From the NCBI GenBank assembly GCA_934096805.1, contig CAKOMW010000001.1:371712-435711 (forward strand): 64,000 nucleotides of DNA. The letters run 5' to 3'. Position 1 is the stretch's first letter. Every line of letters starts with the position of its first letter. The position numbers and the translations under genes are program-made. Of this stretch, positions 2,347 through 64,000 are shown one piece after another. The stretch comes from an uncultured Bacilli bacterium (GTDB lineage Bacteria; Bacillota_I; Bacilli_A; RF39; UBA660). The notes below the pieces were generated by a model. The model was not told the origin of the DNA. It searched no databases and saw nothing but the letters and a program-made list of their open reading frames with translations.

Positions 2347-4428
2347 GATTTGATTGTTTATGAAATCGAATGTTATGGTTTGTTTTGGTTTTATTTCTCC
2401 TTTTATTATTAGGTGTGCTAAAGGTTCTTCGATTTCTTTTGAGATTACTCTTTTTAATGGTCTTGCTCCAAATGCTTTATCGTATCCTAATTCTACTAGA
2501 TAGTCTTTGGCTTTTGGTGTTATTTCAATTTTTATTTGTTTATCGCTTAGTCTTTGTTCTGTTGTTTCTATTAGTTTGTCTAGTATTTCGTACATTACAT
2601 CTTTAGTTAATTCATTAAAGATTATTATTTCGTCGATACGATTAATAAATTCTGGTTTTAAGACTTGTTTTAGTTCTTTTATTACTTCATCTTTTTTGTT
2701 TTCTATGATGTGGTCGCTTCCGATGTTTGAGGTCATGATGATGATTGTGTTTTTAAAGTCTACTGTTCTACCGTTAGAGTCGGTTATTCTACCATCGTCT
2801 AGGATTTGTAATAGTAGATTTAGGACTTCGGGATGGGCTTTTTCTATTTCATCGAATAGAACAATGCTGTAAGGATTTCTTCTTACGGCTTCGGTTAATT
2901 GTCCTCCTTCGTCGTATCCTACGTATCCTGGGGGAGAGCCAATTAATCTTGATGTTGAGAATTTTTCCATGTATTCAGACATGTCTATTCTTATCATGTG
3001 TTTTTCGTCGTCAAATAGTTCATAAGCTAGGGTTTTTGCGACTTCGGTTTTACCAACTCCGGTTGGCCCTAGAAACATGAAAGAACCGATTGGTTTGTTA
3101 GGGTCTTTAATGCCACTTCTTGATTTTATGATTGCTTCTGCTACTAGGTGTAAGGCTTCGTCTTGTCCTTTTACTCTTTTTTTCATGTTTTTTTCTAGGT
3201 TTAGGAGTTTTTCTTTTTCGCTGTTGATTAATTTACTTACAGGAATATTAGTCCATTTTGCTACTACTTCAGCAACTTTTTCTTCGGTTACGGTTTCGCT
3301 TAGGATTTGATTTGTTGTTTGTTTTCTTTTTTCTTCAAGTTGATGTTCCAGTTTTGGAATAGTTCCGTGTTTTAATCTTGCAGCAGTTTCTAAGTCGTAG
3401 TTGCTTTCGGCTTGTTCTAGTTCAAATTTTTTATTTTCTAGCTCTTGTTTTAATTCTTTTATTTCATTGTTTGTTTTCTTTTCTTCTTCCCATTTTGTTT
3501 TTAGGGTTTGTTCTTGTTCTTTTAGGGTTTTTAATTGTTCATTTATTTTGTTTATTCGTTGTTTTGAAAGATCATCTTTTTCTTTTTTTAGAGCTTGTTT
3601 TTCTATTTCTAGACGCATGATGTTTCTTGTTAGTTCATCTAGTTCATTTGGAACTGAATCCATTTGTACTCTTATGGTTGCACATGCTTCGTCAATTAGA
3701 TCGATGGCTTTGTCTGGTAAGTATCTATCTGTTATGTATCTATTTGACATGGTAGCTGCTTTTATTAGAGCTTTGTCTTGGATTGTTACTCCATGGTGTA
3801 TTTCGAATCTTTCTTTTAGGCCTCTTAGGATGGTGATGGTGTCTTCGACTGATGGTTCACTTATTTTTACTTTTTGGAATCTTCGTTCAAGGGCTCCATC
3901 TTTTTCAATGTATTTTCTATATTCATTTAGGGTTGTTGCTCCGATTACATGAATTTCACCACGAGCAAGCATTGGTTTTAAGATGTTTGATGTATCCATT
4001 GCACCGTCTGCTTGGCCTGAGCTTACAATGGTGTGGATTTCGTCGATAAACATTATTATTTGTCCGTTTGATTTTTTAACTTCGTTTAGGACGTTTTTTA
4101 GTCTTTCTTCGAATTCTCCACGGTATTTGGCTCCGGCGATTAATGCAGCCATGTCTAGTTCCCAAATAATTTTGTCTTTTAAGCATGCTGGGATATCATT
4201 TTTTACGATTCTTTGCGCTAATCCTTCGATGATGGCTGTTTTACCGACACCTGGTTCTCCGATTAGAACAGGGTTGTTTTTAGTTTTTCTAGATAGAATT
4301 CTTGTTATGTTTCTTATTTCTTCGTCTCTACCTATTACAGGGTCCATTTTTCCTTGTTTTACTTGTTCGTTTATATTTCGTCCATATTTTTCTAATGGAT
4401 TTTTTTCTTCCTCATATTTCATGTTCAT
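2335..4428 (-). CDS. clpB: AAA+ chaperone ClpB, short form lacking the N-terminal domain
   Basis: 697 aa with two Walker A sites ([16 protein letters not shown]) and a long coiled-coil M-domain between the nucleotide-binding domains. The protein starts directly at NBD1. Confidence 0.85.
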
Positions 4429-5744: not shown

Positions 5745-6857
5745 ATGAAAGTTTATTTAGATTATAGTGCTACTACATGTGTGGATCCTGATGTTCTTGA
5801 ACGTTTTAACTATGTGGTAGAGAATTTTTATGCTAATCCTAATTCTAGTCATGATATGGGTAGGGGGTGTAATGAACTTATTTCGTCTAGTGTTTCTAGT
5901 ATATGTGATTTTTTTGGAATTTCTTCTGATGAGATTGTTTTTACTAGTGGTGCTAGTGAGGCTAATAATACTGTTTTGAAGGGACTTACTTCTGGTAATG
6001 AAATTATTACTACTAAGTTGGAGCATTCATCAATATATGGACCTTGTAGTTATTTGCAAAAGTTAGGTTATAAGGTGTTTTTTGTTCCTCTTGATAGTGA
6101 TGGAATTGTTGATATTGATTGTTTGGAAAAGATGATTAATTCTAATACAGCGCTTGTATCTATTGGTTGTGTTAATAGTGAAGTTGGTCTTAGACAGCCT
6201 ATTGAAGAAATTGGTCTTATGTTAAAAAAGTATCCTCATGTTTTGTTTCATAGTGATATTACGCAGGCTGTTTCTAAAGTGAAGATTGATTTGACTAATG
6301 TTGATATGGCTAGTTTTTCAGGGCATAAGTTCTTTTGTTTTAAAGGTATTGGTGGTTTAATAAAGAAAAAGGATGTTAAGCTTGTTCCTTTGATTCATGG
6401 GGGTAAGAGTACTTCTGTTTACAGGAGTGGAACTCCTTCGACGGAACTTATTTGTGCACTTTCTTGTGCTTTTGATTTGATTTCTGATATGGATTCTAGG
6501 ATTTCTTATGTACATAATCTTAATAAAAAGATTAGAAAGCATGTTTCTTTATATGATAAGATTCTTATTAATAGCAATGATTTTTGTATTGATAATATAT
6601 TGAATATTAGTTTTGTGGGGAAGGATGCAAATGTCATTTTGAAGTATTTTTCTGATAGAGGTATTTATATTTCGACAAAGACGGCATGTAGTAGTGATGC
6701 TAGTTATTCGCTTTGTATTTATGAACTTTATGGTGATAAGAGCAGAGCCAGTTCAAGTGTTAGAATAAGTCTTTCTTATAAGACAACTTTGGATGAAGTT
6801 GATTATTTTCTTAAAGTATTAGATTGTTTAATGGAGGAATACGATGAAGTTAATTAA
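5745..6857 (+). CDS. Class V aminotransferase / cysteine desulfurase (NifS/IscS-like)
   Basis: 370 aa. SGHKF pyridoxal-lysine motif, fold type I PLP architecture, and RSGT near the C-terminus. Confidence 0.7.
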   Translation: MKVYLDYSATTCVDPDVLERFNYVVENFYANPNSSHDMGRGCNELISSSVSSICDFFGISSDEIVFTSGASEANNTVLKGLTSGNEIITTKLEHSSIYGPCSYLQKLGYKVFFVPLDSDGIVDIDCLEKMINSNTALVSIGCVNSEVGLRQPIEEIGLMLKKYPHVLFHSDITQAVSKVKIDLTNVDMASFSGHKFFCFKGIGGLIKKKDVKLVPLIHGGKSTSVYRSGTPSTELICALSCAFDLISDMDSRISYVHNLNKKIRKHVSLYDKILINSNDFCIDNILNISFVGKDANVILKYFSDRGIYISTKTACSSDASYSLCIYELYGDKSRASSSVRISLSYKTTLDEVDYFLKVLDCLMEEYDEVN

Positions 6858-44635: not shown

Positions 44636-44712
44636 TGTCCTGGTAGCTCAGCTGGATAGAGCATCGGCCTTCTAAGCCGGCGGTCAGGGGTTCGAATCCC
44701 TTCCAGGACGCC
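44636..44712 (+). tRNA. tRNA-Arg (anticodon TCT)
   Basis: Manually folded cloverleaf. Acceptor gtcctgg/ccaggac, D-arm gctc...gagc, anticodon loop cttCTaa, T-arm agggg-ttcgaat-ccctt, encoded CCA. Confidence 0.85.
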
Positions 44713-44716
44713 ATTT

Positions 44717-44793
44717 CCGGAGAGTGGCTCAACTTGGTAGAGCACTTGGTTTGGGACCAAGGGGTTGCAGGTTCAAATCCTGTCTCTCCGACC
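44717..44793 (+). tRNA. tRNA-Pro (anticodon TGG)
   Basis: Acceptor cggagag/ctctccg, anticodon stem cttgg/ccaag with loop ttTGGga, T-loop ttcaaat, encoded CCA. Confidence 0.85.
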
Positions 44794-44862
44794 ATTTTTG
44801 TTTATTAACCCGTTTGGGTTTTTTTCTTTGGTTGCAAATGTTTTTGTTTTGTGTTATAATTT

Positions 44863-45363
44863 TTGAGGTGGTTATGTGTGAAAAGTGAGTATTATAATAT
44901 AGTTAATGATATTATTAATAATAAAGATTATATGAGACTTAAGTCTGAGGTTCATCATTATAGTTATGAGAGATATTCTCATTGTATTGATGTTTCTTAT
45001 AAAGTTTATAGGGTTTGTAAAAGGCTTCATTTAGATTATGTTAGTGCGACTCGTGCTGCGGTTGTTCATGATTATTTTTTTAATGAAGAGTTTTCTGATA
45101 AGAGTAAGTTTTATAGAATAACTCATCATTATGAAAAGGCTCTTGCCAATGCTTGTGAAATTACTTCTTTATCTTCGAAGGAAAAAAATATTATTAGTTC
45201 TCATATGTTTCCTATCGGTGGTGTTCTTCCTAGATGCTTAGAGAGTGTTATTGTTGATTTGATTGATGATGTTGTGGCGCTTAAAGAGGTTGTTTCTTGT
45301 AGATATCATTTAATTAAGAATGTTGCTTATTGTTTAGTTGTTTGTGTTCTTTTTTGGAAATAG
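44863..45363 (+). CDS. HD-domain phosphohydrolase family protein
   Basis: H...HD pattern (HCIDVSYK ... VVHDYFF). The probable start is GTG 44878 behind a GAGGTGG RBS. Confidence 0.5.
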   Translation: MRWLCVKSEYYNIVNDIINNKDYMRLKSEVHHYSYERYSHCIDVSYKVYRVCKRLHLDYVSATRAAVVHDYFFNEEFSDKSKFYRITHHYEKALANACEITSLSSKEKNIISSHMFPIGGVLPRCLESVIVDLIDDVVALKEVVSCRYHLIKNVAYCLVVCVLFWK

Positions 45364-45372
45364 TTTCTTTTT

Positions 45373-45449
45373 GTCCTCGTAGCTCAGCAGGATAGAGCAA
45401 TTGCCTCCTAAGCAATAGGTCGGAAGTTCGAATCTTCTCGAGGACGCCA
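45373..45449 (+). tRNA. tRNA-Arg (anticodon CCT)
   Basis: Acceptor gtcctcg/cgaggac, anticodon stem attgc/gcaat with loop ctCCTaa, T-loop ttcgaat, encoded CCA. Confidence 0.85.
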
Positions 45450-45490
45450 TATAAAAAAATAAGAGAAAAGCATTTATTTGTTTTTCTCTT

Positions 45491-46189
45491 TTAATTTTTT
45501 CTTCCTAGATATTCTATTGATATTGTTACTAAAGGATTTGTAAAGTATGAAGAGGATGCTATATTATTTAAATCTGGTGTATTTAAATATATTGATTTTT
45601 TACCTAGGTTTTCGAAATAATATGTATTTTGTGTATTTTCTACTGATAATATTCCTTGTGCTATTGTTTGATGGGATATGTTATCTTTTGACCAAGTGCT
45701 TGCACCAATATAAATATTGTCAGTGTTGGCTAATTTTAGTCCTATTGATATGATATCTTCGTCTTTGTTGAAATTTTGTTCTTTTTTAGTGTAGGCTTGA
45801 ATGATGAATGTTATTTTGTAGTATCCTATTTTGTTAAAATTTATGGTTTGCTTATTGTTTAAGGTTATTATGTTTTGATAGTTTATTTCTTCTCTGTCGA
45901 TAGGGATTTTTTCGTTTGGTTTTATTTCTATTTCTTGTCCAGAGTTGAATTTTACGAGGTTAGCTGATTTTATTGTTTCTTGTCCTCCTTTTGGGATTAT
46001 AAAGTCTAGAATGTGATTGTTTCCTTGTGGTGTATCGATTACTTTTGCATCTTCGTATGGGTCGGCGGTTATGGTGTTTCTAATTGTTATTTTATCGGCG
46101 TCTCCTTTAGGACCTTTTGGTCCTTGAGGACCTAGAATGCCAATGTAGGCTGGTAAGTTTTTCTTTTTGGTTGGATTACATTTTTTCAT
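45491..46189 (-). CDS. Short collagen-like repeat protein with a BclA/C1q-like C-terminal domain
   Basis: GILGPQGPKGPKGD GXY run after a basic N-terminus, then a ~190 aa beta-rich domain. Confidence 0.45.
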   Translation of the reverse strand: MKKCNPTKKKNLPAYIGILGPQGPKGPKGDADKITIRNTITADPYEDAKVIDTPQGNNHILDFIIPKGGQETIKSANLVKFNSGQEIEIKPNEKIPIDREEINYQNIITLNNKQTINFNKIGYYKITFIIQAYTKKEQNFNKDEDIISIGLKLANTDNIYIGASTWSKDNISHQTIAQGILSVENTQNTYYFENLGKKSIYLNTPDLNNIASSSYFTNPLVTISIEYLGRKN

Positions 46190-51682: not shown

Positions 51683-51756
51683 GGGGCTATAGCCAAGTGG
51701 TAAGGCATGGGTCTGCAAAACCTTGAGCACCGGTTCAAATCCGGTTAGCCCCTCCA
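51683..51756 (+). tRNA. tRNA-Cys (anticodon GCA)
   Basis: Co-linear with Bacillus tRNA-Cys. Acceptor ggggcta/tagcccc, D-arm gcc-aagtggtaa-ggc, anticodon loop ctGCAaa, T-arm accgg-ttcaaat-ccggt, encoded CCA. An intrinsic terminator follows at 51768-51797. Confidence 0.85.
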
Positions 51757-53995: not shown

Positions 53996-54069
53996 TGGCA
54001 GGGGTAGCAGGAGTTGAACCCACATCAGCGGTTTTGGAGACCGTTATTCTACCATTGAACTATACCCCT
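53996..54069 (-). tRNA. tRNA-Trp (anticodon CCA)
   Basis: The reverse complement folds with acceptor aggggta/tacccct, D-arm gttc-aatggta-gaat, anticodon loop ctCCAaa, T-loop ttcaact, encoded CCA. Confidence 0.8.
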
Positions 54070-57069: not shown

Positions 57070-58296
57070 ATGAGAAAGATATTTACTAGTATTGATATTG
57101 GAACAAATGAAATTAAGATTGTTACAGTTGAAAAATTTAATAATAAATTTAATGTTTTAGCTGCTTCATCAGTTAAGTCTTTTGGTGTTAGACAAGGTTT
57201 AATAGTGGATGCAGGGTTGGTTAGTTCTGCGATAAAAAAATGTATAAAAGATAATGAAAGTAAGCTTGGAGTAAAAATTACTTCAGTTATTGCTATTGTT
57301 CCATCTAATAATATTGAAATATCTATGAAAACTGGTAAAGTTAATGCAAATGGTGATATGATTAATGGTGATGTTATTTTTGATTGTATTGAAAATTCGC
57401 TTAAGGGAGAAAAAATGCCTAATATGGAGATTGTTAATGTTTCTCCGATTGAGTTTAGAATAGATGGTAAGAAGAAAGTTAAGAATCCTCTTGGACTTGA
57501 TGGGGAAGTTTTGGAGTCTAAAAATATTGTTTGTTTTGTTCCAAAGAAGAATGTGTATTCTGTTGTAAGTGTTATAGAAAATTTGAATATTCAAGTGACA
57601 GATATTATTATTTCTTCAATAGGGGATTATTATTCAATTAAGAATAAAGAACTTGATTCTAAAGTTGGTGCAATTGTTAATATTGGTGAGGAAAAGACTG
57701 TTGTTTCTATATTTAATAAGGGAATTATAATGAGTGAATCAATTATGTCAATTGGATCTCGTTTGATTGATTCGGAACTTGTTTTTAATTATAAAATTGA
57801 TGAAAAAGAAGCTATTAATATTAAGAATACTTTTGCTGTTGCTAGTAGAAGATATGCTGATGGAGAAGAGGTTTATGAGTTTGTTAATAAAGCTTCGAAT
57901 AAAGTTGAAATTAATCAGTACCAACTTGCTGAACTTTTGGAAGCTAATTTGGTAGAAATGTTGAAAAGTATAAAAAATGAGATAAATGACTTAACAAAAC
58001 GTGAAATTAATTATATAATAGTAACTGGGGGAGTTACTTCGATGTTGGGATTTAATTCTTTGGTTGAAGAACTTTATGGTAGATATAGTGGTGTTATGAA
58101 TCTTCCTGTTATAGGAATTAGGAATAATAAATATTCTACTTCATATGGTGCGATTAAGTATTTTTGTGAAAAGCTTGATTTGAGAGAGAAAGATTATACT
58201 ATGTTTAGTGAAGAAATGATAAATGAATTAACACAAGTAAGAAAGAAAATAGGGGCAAGTAGTGTGTTAAGCAAAGTATTTAAACTGTTTGATTAA
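57070..58296 (+). CDS. ftsA: Cell division protein FtsA
   Basis: Actin-like ATPase (IDIGTNEIKIV N-terminus) immediately upstream of ftsZ. Confidence 0.85.
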   Translation: MRKIFTSIDIGTNEIKIVTVEKFNNKFNVLAASSVKSFGVRQGLIVDAGLVSSAIKKCIKDNESKLGVKITSVIAIVPSNNIEISMKTGKVNANGDMINGDVIFDCIENSLKGEKMPNMEIVNVSPIEFRIDGKKKVKNPLGLDGEVLESKNIVCFVPKKNVYSVVSVIENLNIQVTDIIISSIGDYYSIKNKELDSKVGAIVNIGEEKTVVSIFNKGIIMSESIMSIGSRLIDSELVFNYKIDEKEAINIKNTFAVASRRYADGEEVYEFVNKASNKVEINQYQLAELLEANLVEMLKSIKNEINDLTKREINYIIVTGGVTSMLGFNSLVEELYGRYSGVMNLPVIGIRNNKYSTSYGAIKYFCEKLDLREKDYTMFSEEMINELTQVRKKIGASSVLSKVFKLFD

Positions 58297-58308: not shown

Positions 58309-59391
58309 ATGTTTGATATGTCGATGGTGGATCAATTAGCGAAGATAAAAGTAGTAGGAGTTGGTGGTGGCGGTTGTAACGCTATTAACCGAATGATTGA
58401 AGCTGGGGTTCGTGGGGTTGAGTTTATTGTAGTTAATACTGATGCTCAGGTGCTTAATGCATCTAAAGCGGATATAAAGATTCAATTAGGACATGGACTT
58501 GGTGCTGGTGCTAAGCCTGAAATAGGTAAGGAAACAGCGATTAAAGCTAAGAAAGAAATAGAAGAATCTTTAAAAGGTGCCGATATGGTGTTTGTTACAT
58601 GTGGAATGGGTGGAGGTACTGGAACTGGTGCTGCACCAGTTATTGCTGAGATTGCACAAAATTTAGGTGCTTTAACTGTTGCTATTGTAACACGTCCATT
58701 TTCTTTTGAAGGTAAGAGAAGAATGGATAATGCTTTAGCAGGTATTGAAGAATTAAAGAAAAGTGTTGATACTTTGATAGTTATACCTAATGATAGATTG
58801 AGAGAAATTATAGATAAATCTACTTCAATGCTTGATGCATTTAAGGAAGTAGATAATGTACTTCTTCGTGGAGTTCAATCTATATCTGATTTAATTGCAG
58901 TAGTAGGATTGGTAAACTTGGATTTTGCGGATATTAGGTCAGTTATGGAAAAATCGGGTAATGCCATTATTGGTATTGGTATTGGTATGGGAGAAGATAG
59001 AGCTATTGAAGCTGCAAAGCAAGCTGTTTCGTCTCCACTTCTTGAAACTTCAATTCATGGTGCTACTGATGCTATTATAAATATTACTGGTGGTGCTAAT
59101 TTGACATTGTTTGAAGCAGAACAAGCTGCTGAAGTTGTGCGTGCTGCTGCTAATACTGATATAAATGCTATATTTGGTTCTGTTATTAATGAAAATCTTA
59201 CTGATGAAGTTATTGTTACAGTAATTGCTACTGGTTTTGATAAGAAGTCTAAAAAGCAACCTTTGTATAATCAAATTAATCAAACTAAGAGATCTGATAC
59301 TACGTATGATTTAGATGATGATGACAGTGCTTCGACTCCATTTGAACCTACTGAAATAGAAATTCCAACATTTATGCATAAGAATTTTTAG
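58309..59391 (+). CDS. ftsZ: Cell division GTPase FtsZ
   Basis: [13 protein letters not shown] and [13 protein letters not shown] tubulin signature motifs. Confidence 0.95.
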
Positions 59392-59552
59392 TTTGTAATA
59401 TTTCTAATATTTAGTTATAGTTTTTAAATGAAATTTAAAAAAGTGCTTAAGAGAAAACTTGTTTTTTCTCTTTTGTTTTGGATTTAATTTTAAAAAATGG
59501 TCGTTTGACTTCTGTTTTTCTTTCCTTTATAGTGAGTTTCGGAGGTGATAAT

Positions 59553-60569
59553 GTGACTGTTTTAACAAAGAAAAGACTAAAGCCAATGATGAGTATTGAT
59601 GATATGATTATTAGTCTTAAGGCTAAAAATATTAAGTTTAATTATATTAGTGAAGATGAGGTTAAAAATTATTTGATGTTTAATAATAGTTATTATAATG
59701 TGTTGAGTTATGAGGGGAATTTTATGAAGTATCCTAGTCCAGCAGGAAAGTATGAAGGAATGTTTATTGATTTAGATTTTGCTTATTTAAAGGATATGTC
59801 TATTATTGATTTAAGGGTGAGGTTTCTTCTTTTAGATATGATTTTAGATATAGAACATTATCTAAAGTTAAGAATACTTAATATGATGTATGCTATAGAA
59901 CAAGAAGATGGCTATAGAGTAGTTAATTTATATTTAGAAAATGATTATAATAATGAAAAAAGATTACATTCTAGTATAAGGAAGAAAGCTTTTAATAGTT
60001 ATTATAGAAAGATGTTTTCTGATATTGATATGGATGATGATAAGAAACTAGAAGATATACCTATATGGGATTTTTTAGAGATAGCAACACTGGGTGAGCT
60101 TGTAGATTTTTATGATTTTTTTACAAAAGAATATGACTTGAAAATTGATAAAGAATATGTTCATATACTTAGAGATATAGTAAGATTAAGAAACGCTGCC
60201 GGACATAATACCAATGTTTTAACTGACTTAGGAGAAAGTGATAAGCCTCAAAGGCCACATATGCATGTAATTAGGTATTTAGATAGGTGTGGAATACGAT
60301 TGAGGGCTAGATATAAAAGATTATCTAACTCAAAAATAAGACAGATTACATATACACTTTATATGTTTAATAAAATAGTAACAAGTGAAGGAGTGAAGAA
60401 AAAGATAAATAAAAAAATAAACTACTTGTTTTATAAGAGGATACCTAAGAACAAAGATTATTATAAGAATAATGATTTATTAAAGTCTATTTATTATTAT
60501 TTTGATAAGATAATAAGTATTGATTATAATCCAAAAAAATCTGAAAGAAATTTCAGAAAAAAGGCTTGA
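59553..60569 (+). CDS. Abi_2 family abortive-infection protein (AbiD/AbiF-like)
   Basis: ~340 aa with Abi_2-like conserved blocks (LMFNNSYYNVLSYEGNF ... LRNAAGHN). The likely start is GTG 59553 behind a GGAGGTG RBS; the ORF track starts at 59478. Confidence 0.6.
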   Translation: MTVLTKKRLKPMMSIDDMIISLKAKNIKFNYISEDEVKNYLMFNNSYYNVLSYEGNFMKYPSPAGKYEGMFIDLDFAYLKDMSIIDLRVRFLLLDMILDIEHYLKLRILNMMYAIEQEDGYRVVNLYLENDYNNEKRLHSSIRKKAFNSYYRKMFSDIDMDDDKKLEDIPIWDFLEIATLGELVDFYDFFTKEYDLKIDKEYVHILRDIVRLRNAAGHNTNVLTDLGESDKPQRPHMHVIRYLDRCGIRLRARYKRLSNSKIRQITYTLYMFNKIVTSEGVKKKINKKINYLFYKRIPKNKDYYKNNDLLKSIYYYFDKIISIDYNPKKSERNFRKKA

Positions 60570-61050
60570 CTATGCTAACACAATATGTTATATTAAATGC
60601 ATAGGGAAAAAAACGTTAAATCGTTTTTTGTAAGATAGCTATTATCGGTAGCGGTCTATTTTTTTGTCTTGATAATCAATAAACATTGGTTATGATTTTA
60701 ATAAAATTAATAAAATAATTGGAGAAAAAGGTGTGAATAATTAGCGAAAAATGCTTGACTGTGTTAACACTATGTGTTATATTAGATACATAGGGAAAAA
60801 AACGTTTTAACGTTTTTTGTAAGATAGCTATTATCGGTAGCGGTCTATTTTTTTGCTTTAATAATCGATAAATGTTGGTTATAGTTTTAATAAAGTAATT
60901 AAAGAAAAGCACTTGACTATATCAACACAGTATGTTATATTATATTTGTTAGTAAAAAAACGTTTTAACATTTTTTGTAAGACAGCTATTTTCGGATAGG
61001 GGTCTATTTTTTTGTTTTGATTGATTTTTTCTTTTTTTCGTGATATAATA
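60565..61050 (+). repeat. Three tandem ~160-190 bp repeat units (starts 60565, 60754, 60912). Each has a sigma-A-like promoter (TTGACT-17-TATATT), then a short transcript with conserved hairpins and a U-tract (putative small RNA array)
   Basis: Direct-repeat units share cttgact...tatgttatatta...atagggaaaaaaacgtt(t)aa(t/a)cgttttttgtaagatagctattatcggtagcggtctatttttttg. Hairpin 1 is AAAAAACG-loop-CGTTTTTT. A second hairpin (ATAATC(A/G)A / TTGGTTAT) is shared by copies 1-2 with a compensatory difference (A-U in copy 1, G-U in copy 2). Copy 3 is degenerate and leads into the next gene. Confidence 0.7.
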
Positions 61051-61075
61051 AAGCAACTTTTAAGGGGGCTTTTTT

Positions 61076-62305
61076 ATGTATAGTTTTACAGAAAATAATG
61101 GTAAGATTTGTGTATATTGTACTGATAATGATGAAGAGATTGTTTTAGATATTGATGAAGTAACTAGTGATGTTATTTTATGTTTGTTTAGGGATAGAGA
61201 TAAGAATATATTTACTAATTATTCTGATTTATGGACTGATGTTACTAAGCGTTTTATTGAAAAGTTAAATGATTTTGAGATAGTTATTAATGTTGATGAT
61301 CATAGTTCTTTTTTAGATTTTGTTTCTGATTTTGATAAGGGTGTTTTGGATAATATTTATGTTAATTATCAAAGTTCTTCTGCTACTTGTAATTTTTTTG
61401 ATTATAAGAATATGATGGATAAGATTAATTTTATTGTGTCTTCAATTAATGATTATGATTTGTCTTGTATGGAAATTATTATGGTTGTATATGATATTGT
61501 TAAGGCTTATAAGTATGGTAATTTGTCTTTTGATGATTATACTGTTTCTAGAGCTCTTCATAATGTTGTTAAAAATGATAGTTGTGTTTGTGCGGGTTTT
61601 AGTAATTATTTTAATTTTTTACTTAATGAGCTTGGTGTTAAGAGTGATGTTTTAATGCTTAAGAGAAAAGATAGTAATATTGGACATCAAAGAAGTTTTA
61701 TTTATGTTGATGATGATAAGTATGATGTTAATGGAATATTTTTGTTTGATCCTACTTTTGATTGTAATAGAAATGTTGATTATATAAATAATTATAATTA
61801 TTTTATGCAAAGTGCTGGTTTTTTTAAATATATTGATGGTGGTAGAATGATTTATGATGAGATTTATAAGTCTCATGATTTGTATAAGGTTTTAGATTAT
61901 AAAAAGTTGGATATTGATAATATTGATACTTTAGAATGGTTTAAAATACTTAGTGTAGTTAGATATCTTAATAGATTTACTGGTGCAGAGGATAAGGGGA
62001 TTAGTTTTGATGCTAATGTATATAAAGAAGATTTAAATAAGTATTATAATCTTTTGAATCAATGTTTAGGGTATGAAGATTTTATAAGGCTTTTATATAA
62101 TGTTAGGAATGTAGAGTATGACATGGGTATTATAGATGAGAAAGTGTCCAAAGAAGAGGTTATTGAGGTTTGTTATAGTAAGTATTGTAAGATGTTTAAA
62201 AGAATTAAACAGGATGATAAGCTTAGTTATTTTAAATTACTTTTTAGATTAAGTGATTTTGATAGTTTATTTGATGAGGTTAAGGTTAAGATAAGAGAAA
62301 AATAA
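61076..62305 (+). CDS. Cytoplasmic transglutaminase-like cysteine protease superfamily protein
   Basis: Cys-His-Asp core in canonical order and spacing: CVCAGFS (Cys), IGHQRSFIYV (His), FLFDPTFD (Asp), matching the G.C..F.....GIP.R...G....H.W.E.......DPT pattern of the TGase-like fold. Confidence 0.5.
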   Translation: MYSFTENNGKICVYCTDNDEEIVLDIDEVTSDVILCLFRDRDKNIFTNYSDLWTDVTKRFIEKLNDFEIVINVDDHSSFLDFVSDFDKGVLDNIYVNYQSSSATCNFFDYKNMMDKINFIVSSINDYDLSCMEIIMVVYDIVKAYKYGNLSFDDYTVSRALHNVVKNDSCVCAGFSNYFNFLLNELGVKSDVLMLKRKDSNIGHQRSFIYVDDDKYDVNGIFLFDPTFDCNRNVDYINNYNYFMQSAGFFKYIDGGRMIYDEIYKSHDLYKVLDYKKLDIDNIDTLEWFKILSVVRYLNRFTGAEDKGISFDANVYKEDLNKYYNLLNQCLGYEDFIRLLYNVRNVEYDMGIIDEKVSKEEVIEVCYSKYCKMFKRIKQDDKLSYFKLLFRLSDFDSLFDEVKVKIREK

Positions 62306-62403: not shown

Positions 62404-64000
62404 TGTGAGGAAAAATATTACTAAAGATGATATAAAAAAGATGTTACCTGCTTTAGTAGTGTTATTTATTTTAATAGCATTAGGTACATATGCTTTTGAT
62501 AAAGTTGATTTACTTGGTAAACAAAATTTAGGAATAGTTGCTAATGAAGAGGTGGCTTTAAGGCTTGTTGAGGGGGAACAAGATTTTAAAGTAGGGAATA
62601 CTCCTCTTAGTGATAGTGCTGGGAAGGCTCAGACTACTTATTATGAGTTTAATGTAGAAGGGGTTTCTAATGTTGTATATAATTTAGATTATTATTTGTA
62701 TTTGATACCTAAAAATGGTGGTAATACAGTTGATGCTTCTTTTGTTAAACTTTATCTTACTAAAGTGGTTAATAATTCTGAGACAGTAGTGGTTGATGTT
62801 ACTACTTTAGATAAGTTAAAGGATTTTGGATTTAATAAGTTAGTTACAAATAGCACTTTTAATTTTACTAGTAATAGTAAGACTACTAAAACAGATACAT
62901 ATAGATTAAGAGTTTGGTTAGCTGAAGGTGCTACTGATAATGAAGAAACGGCTCCTGATGTAAAAGAAACTGATGATGGTCTTAATATTAAGGCTATATC
63001 AGGAGGGTATAGTTTTAGTATGGGTGTTAGTTCATATAAGATTGGTGAACCTAATAAACCAGAGTTAACTAGTAATATGATACCTGTGTATTATGATAGT
63101 ACGAATGCAGTATGGAAAAAAGCAGATAGTAGTAATACAAATGAAACATATAAATGGTATGATTATGATAATAAAATGTGGGCAAATGCTGTGACTGTTA
63201 CTGAAACTAATAGAGATACTTATTTGAAAGCGAATGCAGGAACAGAAATAAATATGAATGATATAAATACAATGTGGGTATGGATACCAAGATATACATA
63301 TACATATTTAAATACAAATACACCAGAGGAGATAAAGATAAAGTTTGAAAATGGAACAGAAAGTCATGGTACAATAAAGTGTACTGATGCAGTAACAGGA
63401 AATGGCACAACATCCCAAACATGTACAGATACAACAAATGGAAGTTTAAAAGCAGGAACCAGTACATATACACATCCAGCTTTTACATTTGGAGATACAG
63501 AATTAACAGGATTATGGGTAGGAAAGTTTGAGAGTAGTGCAACAGAAATACCAACATCATCATCTACAACAGAATCAACAATTATAATAAAACCAAATGT
63601 CCAGTCATTAAGATATAAAGCAGTATCATATTTCTTTCGCGATGCCCGACAAATGGAGAAAACAAGTAATGTATATGGTTTTCCACAAAGTAGTAGTACA
63701 ACATTTAACTACAACGGTAATTTAACTGGAGACACAAATAATATAGATATACATATGATGAAGAATACAGAATGGGGAGCAGTAACATATTTATATCATA
63801 GTAAATATGGAAGATGTACAAACGGTTCATGTGAAGAAATAACAATAAATAATTGTATTAATATGACAACAGGAATAGGAGCAGACACAGTAAGTGCAAG
63901 CAGGTCTGATACAACATGTACAACAGATAAGAATAAATATAATGGAGAGAGTGGAGTAAAAGCATCAACCACTGGAAATGTATATGGTGTGTACGACATG
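62404..64000 (+). CDS. Secreted protein, paralog C (partial, runs off the window end): TasA/SipW-type N-terminal region plus the same FGE-sulfatase-like lectin-fold core as 41189-42748
   Basis: GTG start behind an AAGGAG RBS. N-terminal LGTYAFDKVDLLGKQNLGIVANEEVAL resembles the TasA N-terminus. From NKPELTSNMIPVYYD to NVYGVYDM it is visibly almost identical to paralog B (only scattered residue and base differences, 63054-64000 vs 41419-42367). Confidence 0.6.

Follow-up and report, generated by a model that had tools for sequence, protein, structure and literature searches.

The DNA considered here is a window of 64,000 nucleotides (nt) from an uncultured Bacilli bacterium (contig CAKOMW010000001.1 of assembly GCA_934096805.1, positions 371,712 to 435,711 of the forward strand), and all positions below are counted along this whole stretch. 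The window is AT-rich chromosomal DNA whose closest database relatives are metagenome-assembled genomes (MAGs) of uncultured gut 'Bacilli bacterium'. Within it, ftsA (57070-58296) lies 5′ of ftsZ (58309-59391), which in turn lies 5′ of a plus-strand gene of the Abi_2 / AbiD-F type (59553..60569, GTG start) encoding a predicted HEPN RNase toxin of 338 amino acids (aa). Three tandem units follow, each with a promoter and a predicted small RNA (sRNA), and then a 409-aa transglutaminase-like gene (61076-62305). Together, the Abi_2 gene and the RNA units (59505-61014) form a compact two-part cassette inserted between ftsZ and the conserved neighbouring gene.

The Abi_2 gene has a predicted promoter of its own (TTGACT-17-TATAGT, 59505..59533, plus strand; promoter scan and sequence), and its 5′ untranslated region (UTR) of ~15-20 nt ends in a GGAGGTG ribosome-binding site (RBS), therefore leaving no space for an upstream non-coding RNA (ncRNA). 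At the other end of the gene, the TGA stop codon (60567-60569) lies inside the -35 hexamer (60566-71) of RNA unit 1, with no terminator between gene and unit. The units belong to a direct-repeat family of three 157-nt copies at 60558-60714, 60747-60903 (87%) and 60905-61061 (62%), spaced by 189 and 158 nt, and every copy opens with CTTGACT (60565, 60754 and 60912) exactly where the original prediction for this locus, made from the sequence alone, had placed it. The TTGACT-17-TATATT promoter named in that prediction is likewise present in all three copies, to which we add a TG extension (TTGACT-17-TG-n-TATATT); a promoter scan puts it at 60566..60594 in unit 1, 60755..60783 in unit 2 and 60913..60941 in unit 3, all on the plus strand, and 0 of 100 shuffled sequences gave any match to the pattern.

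The predicted fold of each unit consists of an A-rich/U-rich hairpin, a second stem containing a mismatch and a run of U7, in line with the two hairpins and U-tract proposed earlier, and amounts to an sRNA of ~65 nt. In copy 1 (type alpha, 60598..60666, plus strand), whose transcript is predicted at ~60601-60665, hairpin 1 pairs AAAAAACG with CGUUUUUU, and a GUA linker leads to hairpin 2, AGAU.GCUAUU/GGUAGC.GUCU, after which U7 comes; the fold has -13.9 kcal/mol and z -2.9. The copy scores 69.1 bits (E 4e-11) with the covariance model R1 introduced below. Copy 2 (also type alpha, 60787..60855, plus strand; R1 66.7 bits, fold -14.5 kcal/mol) shares 91% identity with unit 1 across promoter and RNA in the identity matrix. 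Copy 3 (type beta, 60945..61014, plus strand) has an AGU-A7 5′ end, hairpin 2 of the form GACAGC...GGGGUC and one broken pair (C-A) in hairpin 1, and it was previously described as degenerate and as reading into the following gene. Because it scores 68.7 bits with R1 against 69.1 for copy 1, and its beta unit is 89% identical to unit 2 of the related strain L023, we regard it as a distinct conserved unit type and not a decayed copy, and the features of this variant also turn up in the L008, L010 and L018 arrays (related loci carry L numbers here). Nor need it read into the next gene, as it has its own hairpin and U7, reaching ~61013, and the 409-aa gene has its own promoter (TTGATT-17-TATAAT, 61021-61049, promoter scan).

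Two further candidate features of the units were tried and rejected. A leaderless small open reading frame (ORF) has a start codon near the predicted transcription start in most copies, yet its peptides run from 6 to >22 aa with no conservation; 9 of 47 distinct sequences have no start codon, and a 1-nt indel in a U-run shifts the frame between clades. An extra stem, suggested by the L012 fold, would pair UGCAA at the 5′ end with UUGCA after hairpin 1; it competes with the hairpin 1 registers and shows no informative covariation. When the repeats and the region upstream of the gene were scanned against Rfam 15, nothing was found at gathering score or at E<=10 except chance matches such as ctRNA_pT181 (23 bits against a cut-off of 56).

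The first clue to the nature of the units came from three Abi homologues elsewhere, each with one promoter-plus-RNA unit directly after the stop codon. Of these, the one at 92% identity has the same synteny; the 64% homologue stands between a sigma-factor gene and an argS T-box, and the 60% homologue belongs to a defence island that also includes HipA_C and restriction genes. The linkage was then approached from both sides, the related loci being metagenome assemblies. From the RNA side, a degenerate RNA pattern was run over one genome per species in 185,579 species and gave 16 loci, all of them in gut 'Bacilli bacterium' MAGs. An Abi_2 ORF or remnant, recognized by a hidden Markov model made from the Abi homologues, lies just upstream on the same strand in 13 of the 16, including L012, in which gene and RNA are parted only by an insertion sequence (IS); the remaining three are at contig ends. 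From the protein side, a metagenome scan with the Abi alignment gave 80 loci at 33-91% identity. From 47 distinct RNA sequences we built the covariance model R1 and searched the window and 99 loci with it (665 kb); its E-values are rough owing to a shortened calibration. Near-full-length Abi genes of at least 52% identity occur in 62 loci; at least 120 nt of downstream sequence is available in 59 of these, and all 59 have an R1 match, so that not one intact Abi gene without the RNA was seen in this set. The match begins 21-63 nt past the last Abi codon in 58 of the 59, the exception being L012 with its IS. All credible R1 matches in the searched sequence adjoin an Abi_2 gene, and the window holds none outside the three units; AT-rich hairpins at 45452-45502 gave chance-level matches only (E ~0.5).

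This two-way linkage (13/16 RNA-first, 59/59 protein-first) means that the RNA is found essentially only beside Abi_2 genes, and it rules out the possibility, raised in the original prediction, of a generic promoter/terminator unit unrelated to Abi genes. From this pattern of conservation the RNA appears to be a dedicated partner of this Abi_2 clade. The cassette also moves as a unit, and its neighbours differ among loci: ftsZ, a sigma factor with argS, a Metallophos gene, HipA_C with restriction-modification genes, an Rnf-type gene, AbiE-like genes and rlmN. In L002, a T-box leader (6167-6347, 115 bits) stands before argS and immediately after the Abi_2+sRNA cassette, a position which shows the cassette inserted between the sigma-factor gene and a housekeeping leader.

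The two hairpins are supported by compensatory change. Of the 856 cells for the 47 distinct sequences, 93% are standard pairs; changes on both sides were seen at six pairs, and this is the safer figure since many sequences are closely related and cell counts overstate independent events. Such changes include C-G/U-A and G-C/A-U at the top of hairpin 1 and, in hairpin 2, G-C/U-G/C-G/A-U. Covariation scored 0.304; shuffles gave 0.192 ± 0.007, with 0 of 500 as high, and slid-partner controls no more than 0.082. RNAalifold recovered the identical two hairpins with no structure supplied. The frequent U-G pairs, which would be C-A on the opposite strand, indicate that RNA and gene share their orientation, on the plus strand. 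An RNA of this kind, small, promoter-driven and terminator-ended, resembles many trans-acting sRNAs, and could in principle be a base-pairing regulator, either antisense to Abi translation (type I-like) or a hitch-hiking riboregulator of other genes. We consider this very improbable: the duplex energy between the sRNA and the initiation region of its cognate Abi gene was no better than that of shuffled RNAs in seven loci (z -1.6 to +1.0), the changes are compensatory within the hairpins with no preserved seed, and the RNA tracks the Abi gene across hosts and contexts.

The promoter is conserved as well. TTGACA/T, a 17-18-nt spacer and TATATT occur without exception in the 60 distinct upstream regions; 59 of them also have the TG extension, and in 58 the -10 element ends 3 nt before the start of the R1 model. 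Such a promoter within -40 to +63 of the stop codon is present at 56 of 72 distinct Abi_2 3′ ends, as against 4 of 346 other ORFs in the same loci. These data bear on a second alternative, that each unit acts in cis, as a terminator or stabilizer in the 3′ part of the Abi mRNA joined to a restart promoter, and yields no trans-acting RNA product with a function of its own. The unit does start at the stop codon, its second hairpin and U-tract are terminator-like, and the Staphylococcus aureus RNA Sau-5971, to which we return below, was described as 3′ UTR-processed from SA0355 (PMC3386247). Against this stand the private near-consensus promoter kept in every upstream region, the conservation of hairpin 1 and of the single-stranded GYAAG and CUAUUU motifs, which goes well past the needs of a terminator, and the multiplication of units to 2-5 copies.

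The placement of certain copies argues in the same direction. In L061, RNA units at 2759-2828 and 4027-4096 stand one on either side of the Abi_2 gene. The upstream copy is complete with its own promoter and terminator, an argument against location relative to the gene being essential. In L012, an IS (1481-2431, with a 316-aa transposase gene on the opposite strand) sits exactly between the Abi_2 gene and the sRNA; it changes the last residues of the Abi protein, and the RNA gene, 1.2 kb distant, is intact. Action of the RNA in trans is therefore plausible from these two loci. In L009 (3490-3862) and L011 (3243-3574), RNA units and their promoters are intact beside 70-90-aa C-terminal Abi_2 remnants, and in six further loci the Abi ORF is split and the RNA intact, where assembly errors are possible. 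The copy upstream of the gene, the one beyond an IS and the intact units beside toxin remnants speak against a purely cis-acting element, an explanation which we consider quite unlikely. The order of decay in these sequences, with the toxin lost and the RNA kept, fits a toxin-antitoxin (TA) pair. By eye only, the next genes downstream in L009 resemble an AbiEi/AbiEii pair.

In 54 of the 59 loci there is one unit only, yet arrays recur. Besides the three units of the window, with their spacing of 189 and 158 nt, we found three units in L023 (Abi 91% identical), four of 114 bp in L018, five with a 114-nt period in L008, at least three in L010 at a contig end, and the two that flank the gene in L061. 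The three closest strains differ in make-up, the window having alpha-alpha′-beta, L023 alpha-beta-gamma and L001 gamma only; the downstream flank is identical in all three.

The protein side of the cassette agrees with the original assignment to Abi_2. Pfam PF07751 matches with 72.1 bits against a cut-off of 25.6 (E 9e-20), and the best PADLOC model is AbiD (1e-15). The HEPN motif Rx4-6H is present as R213-N-A-A-G-H218, and 13 homologues, the most distant at 56% identity, all share R213, N214, A215, H218 and N219. Compared by profile with AbiF from the C. difficile phage phiC2, the protein gave 82.6% probability at ~25% identity, with an alignment that ends at the RNxxAH motif. The best structural match of the protein is 8vz6, that is PbAbiF, and the next fold neighbours are Cas13 proteins; the modelled fold is a helical HEPN fold of the AbiF/Cas13 kind. 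AbiF-type HEPN proteins have reportedly been proposed of late as ancestors of Cas13. The position of the motif, R213/H218, is nearly equal to that of the catalytic HEPN residues R210/H215 in PbAbiF and R202/H207 in AbiFCd (PMC12373285).

The nearest characterized systems are indeed pairs of an Abi_2/AbiF protein with an ncRNA antitoxin, described in 2025 as type III-like TA systems, in which the HEPN dimer is blocked by the bound ncRNA (PMC12373285, PMC12737573). Two have been characterized, AbiFCd-RCd22 of C. difficile and PbAbiF-AbiFr of Prevotellaceae (PDB 8vz6), and in both the ncRNA neutralizes toxicity (PMC12373285, PMC12737573); AbiF proteins with an ncRNA antitoxin are also the subject of a 2025 paper in Cell, as summarized in PMC12737573 and PMC13064643. 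The present cassette shares with them the protein family, a short, structured, tightly linked ncRNA ending in a terminator, and a small format found in mobile and defence contexts. The RNA is arranged differently: in classical AbiF loci it lies 5′ of the gene (PMC12373285, PMC13064643), as an attenuating leader of the toxin mRNA, whereas here it is 3′ of the gene with its own consensus promoter. The two-hairpin architecture and the possible amplification to 2-5 units are also unlike those systems.

The 5′ ncRNA that keeps AbiF proteins in check carries the abiF motif (RF03085), and we searched for this motif. The window gave no match at gathering score or at E<=10, including the interval 59350-59700, and none was found at gathering score in six related loci. 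As positive controls, the model matched 5′ of the gene in phiC2 (37.6 bits) and on a B. fragilis plasmid (40 bits), and on an Acetobacter plasmid at 29 bits, under the cut-off; the positive plasmid loci include L111, L112 and, weakly, L113. In L111, a Phocaeicola massiliensis plasmid carrying a close PbAbiF relative, the motif is upstream at 400-436 (59 bits), and a second copy at 1427-1486 (44 bits) lies just 3′ of the gene, possibly belonging to another gene or representing a second partner copy. The abiF consensus, a GC-rich stem with a CAAAU internal loop, has no resemblance to the two hairpins described here, and after the positive control we rejected it as the identity of this RNA. The locus thus departs from the published AbiF-ncRNA design in two of its defining features, namely the motif of the RNA and its placement as a 5′ attenuator. 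Scans of viral contigs with the RNA pattern and with PbAbiF gave no match for either.

Other known systems offer further parallels. ToxIN-type loci carry repeats of ~35-40 nt upstream of the toxin under one promoter, the precursor is cut by the toxin and a terminator sets the ratio (PMC12373285). Like ToxIN, AbiQ-antiQ and CptIN, the present locus has a tandem RNA gene beside an Abi endoribonuclease toxin, with RNA excess built into the locus, but its units are of 114-189 bp (158-189 bp in the window, 114 bp in L008 and L018), every unit comes with its own promoter and terminator, and the whole set is downstream of the gene; the modelled fold is HEPN/AbiF-like and not that of ToxN/AbiQ. The best PADLOC model being AbiD, a likeness to the lactococcal AbiD/AbiD1/AbiD-like/AbiF group also deserves mention. 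A 2026 review treats this group as protein-plus-RNA two-component Abi systems with a conserved, required non-coding sequence upstream of the gene (PMC13064643), whereas in our cassette only a promoter and RBS precede the gene and the RNA comes after it. Compared with type VI CRISPR-Cas13, there are no spacers and no CRISPR repeat architecture, each protein has one HEPN motif and each unit has its own promoter. This RNA, its self-promoted 3′ position and its arrays are found neither in Rfam 15 nor in the literature retrieved, which does not cover the full Cell 2025 AbiF paper. The earlier statement that the combination is not a described system thus stands, within this coverage, for the RNA design and falls for the pairing of AbiF with an ncRNA, which as such is already known (PMC12373285).

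The reading that we favour, and hold to be fairly probable by analogy with these systems, is that the cassette encodes an Abi_2 RNase with a 3′ sRNA partner, most likely an antitoxin, acting as an AbiF-ncRNA (type III-like) TA system. The RNA would bind the Abi_2 dimer and hold its HEPN site inactive, and a strong private promoter on each unit together with multiplication of units would keep the RNA in excess. Because no terminator separates the gene from unit 1, the Abi mRNA would itself carry unit 1 as its 3′ end. Phage infection or stress might then halt the RNA supply or displace the RNA, freeing the RNase and arresting the cell in the manner of abortive infection. Near-exclusive linkage, covariation and an AbiF-like HEPN protein all agree with the original proposal that sRNAs tied to the Abi_2 gene recall type III systems; the positional analogue in S. 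aureus (sau-5971) is transcribed, which we also count in favour, and the antitoxin direction is supported beyond analogy by the decay pattern of the sequences.

Several points weigh against this reading. We infer transcription, RNA-protein binding, toxicity, antitoxin direction and trigger throughout, with binding, toxicity and neutralization taken by analogy, and as the RNA fails the Rfam abiF model, the analogy with AbiF runs through protein family and gene linkage and not through RNA homology. Linkage and covariation show a structured partner RNA, which is compatible with an inhibitor or an activator. The linkage figures themselves come from an RNA-first pattern that is strict and would miss diverged free-standing copies, and from metagenomic loci chosen via the Abi protein. 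Single-sequence fold z-scores of the three units are modest (-2.9, -2.0 and -0.5), and a simple terminator scan made no call on the second hairpins, probably passing over them for their internal mismatch. The AlphaFold model of the protein is moderately confident (predicted local distance difference test score, pLDDT, 68), a Foldseek search of this model against the PDB gave no match, and sequence searches of the PDB with the Abi_2 protein did not reach 8vz6 directly.

The ambiguity between inhibitor and activator leads to another explanation, in which the Abi_2 RNase requires the RNA as its cofactor, sensor or activator, comparable to CRISPR RNA (crRNA) or trans-activating crRNA (tracrRNA), with arrays providing isoforms of different specificity. 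The Cas13 proteins are fold neighbours next after AbiF, the arrays hold two or three distinct unit types that differ mainly in hairpin 2, and linkage and covariation suit any obligate RNA partner equally. The units, however, have no variable spacer-like segment, and their differences are allelic variants of the same hairpins. Neutralization of toxicity by the ncRNA in both characterized relatives (PMC12373285, PMC12737573) speaks for an antitoxin, and a decayed toxin beside an intact RNA fits an antitoxin better. We therefore regard an activating cofactor as unlikely and retain the antitoxin as the preferred role.

We turn to the 409-aa gene, for which the original prediction had suggested a role as a second effector. 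The protein has, as was noted there, a transglutaminase-like fold with a conserved Cys-His-Asp triad; it has no Pfam or PADLOC match and only 25 homologues in 5.8 billion proteins. A three-component defence module, with the transglutaminase-like protease as a second effector under control of the RNA array, would draw on this fold and triad and on the arrangement of the genes, which are adjacent on the same strand with the last unit 60 nt before the 409-aa gene. In related genomes, however, homologues of 40-43% identity directly follow ftsZ after a 78-nt gap with no Abi gene and no RNA, within a shared amidase-CvpA-thioredoxin-ftsA-ftsZ neighbourhood; R1 gives no match at these cassette-free ftsZ loci, and the -10 element and RBS ahead of the gene are recognizably the same there. 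All four homologue contexts retrieved (L104-L107) are in the ftsZ neighbourhood, and among the loci examined the gene was never seen beside Abi_2+RNA cassettes in other contexts. Since its homologues follow ftsZ in cassette-free genomes, the 409-aa gene is a neighbour only, a bystander of the cassette, and a three-component module is extremely improbable. By the same comparison, the Abi_2+RNA cassette (~59.5-61.0 kb) is an insertion between the ftsZ terminator and the 409-aa gene promoter. The 409-aa protein is cytoplasmic, and its fixed place beside division genes in this group of gut Bacilli might point to a division-related role.

Further downstream, large proteins with an N-terminal membrane helix and Thr/Asn-rich repeats are encoded at 62405-64000, where the gene runs off the window, and at L001:7503-11014; they match no Pfam family except for a sub-threshold P3-capsid-like match (E 0.016). 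In related genomes the same position is occupied by large proteins with no Pfam match or with a weak DUF6273 match only. Elsewhere in the window, Rfam detects five tRNA genes (44637-45446, 51683-51753 and 53999-54069), three of them clustered at 44.6-45.4 kb.

The layout of the cassette extends beyond the R1 family. In Abi_2 clades at 33-43% identity, the stop codon is again the site of a promoter, and a structured, terminator-ended RNA follows. The RNA of the 41% clade is ~140 nt, with a first hairpin AGGAAAGAUG...CAUUUUU, and that of the 35% clade is ~89 nt, with a first hairpin GGAAAAAGA...UCUUUU, both like hairpin 1 here. Both clades often have two tandem promoter-bearing units, and share a GGAAA start and an A/U-rich first hairpin. 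sRNAs of these clades were noted at L071:3832-4218, L083:2991-3370, L086:3886-4252 and related loci, and look like separate, unmodelled RNA families. A 33% relative (L101) has an R1 match of 39 bits (E 9e-6). At 25-29% identity, the same layout is found in a human-gut phage, a streptococcal satellite prophage and S. aureus.

The S. aureus case is of particular interest, for the RNA is one already named. In L110 (OR844992.1, a chromosomal fragment filed as 'phage'), the Rfam family sau-5971 (RF02397) matches at 2162-2257 with 117 bits, directly 3′ of an Abi_2 gene (Pfam 6e-23) that has a promoter at its end, in the chromosomal rpsR/ssb neighbourhood with rpsR/ssb convergent. Sau-5971 (also RsaL, srn_0880 or S109) is a Northern-validated, highly expressed, bona fide sRNA (PMC5826253, PMC3386247), described as processed from the 3′ UTR of SA0355 (PMC3386247). 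Like the RNA of our cassette, this sRNA is structured, preceded by a promoter and encoded directly 3′ of an Abi_2 gene and on its strand, and its 5′ end is purine-rich (GGAAA); it differs in its length of ~96 nt, its three hairpins and an Abi protein of 28% identity. R1 gives a weak, non-significant match at its position (14.6 bits, E 1.2), and RF02397, which does match L110, has no match in the window. The similarity is one of position and architecture, with RNA homology not demonstrated. In the papers searched, no function or Abi link is given for Sau-5971, and literature searches that paired Abi_2 or Sau-5971 with a TA role found nothing. By analogy, Sau-5971 may be the RNA partner of its Abi_2 gene.

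Taken together, these cases allow a broader reading that we put forward tentatively, as possible rather than probable. A large unrecognized branch of AbiD/F HEPN proteins might use a self-promoted sRNA gene right after the stop codon, distinct from the published design; its RNAs would share, across clades, a GGAAA start and, in most clades, an A-rich/U-rich first hairpin, and could form heterogeneous arrays of 2-5 units. The branch would span gut Bacilli, gut phages and streptococcal satellites, and Sau-5971/RsaL would be the antitoxin of SA0355. If true, this orphan sRNA would obtain its first function, and RNA-gene arrays beside a Cas13-ancestor-like protein would present a natural case of RNA-array formation at a HEPN effector outside CRISPR.

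For the family as a whole, this locus and ~100 related ones indicate a second RNA-partner solution in AbiF-type HEPN proteins. If confirmed, it would widen the definition of type III-like TA systems, and the covariance model could annotate many 'single-gene' AbiD matches as two-component systems, which would also explain the difficulty of cloning such genes alone. It would likewise suggest a function for the validated and so far unexplained sRNA Sau-5971 of S. aureus, and would provide natural material for how RNA arrays arise beside HEPN nucleases.

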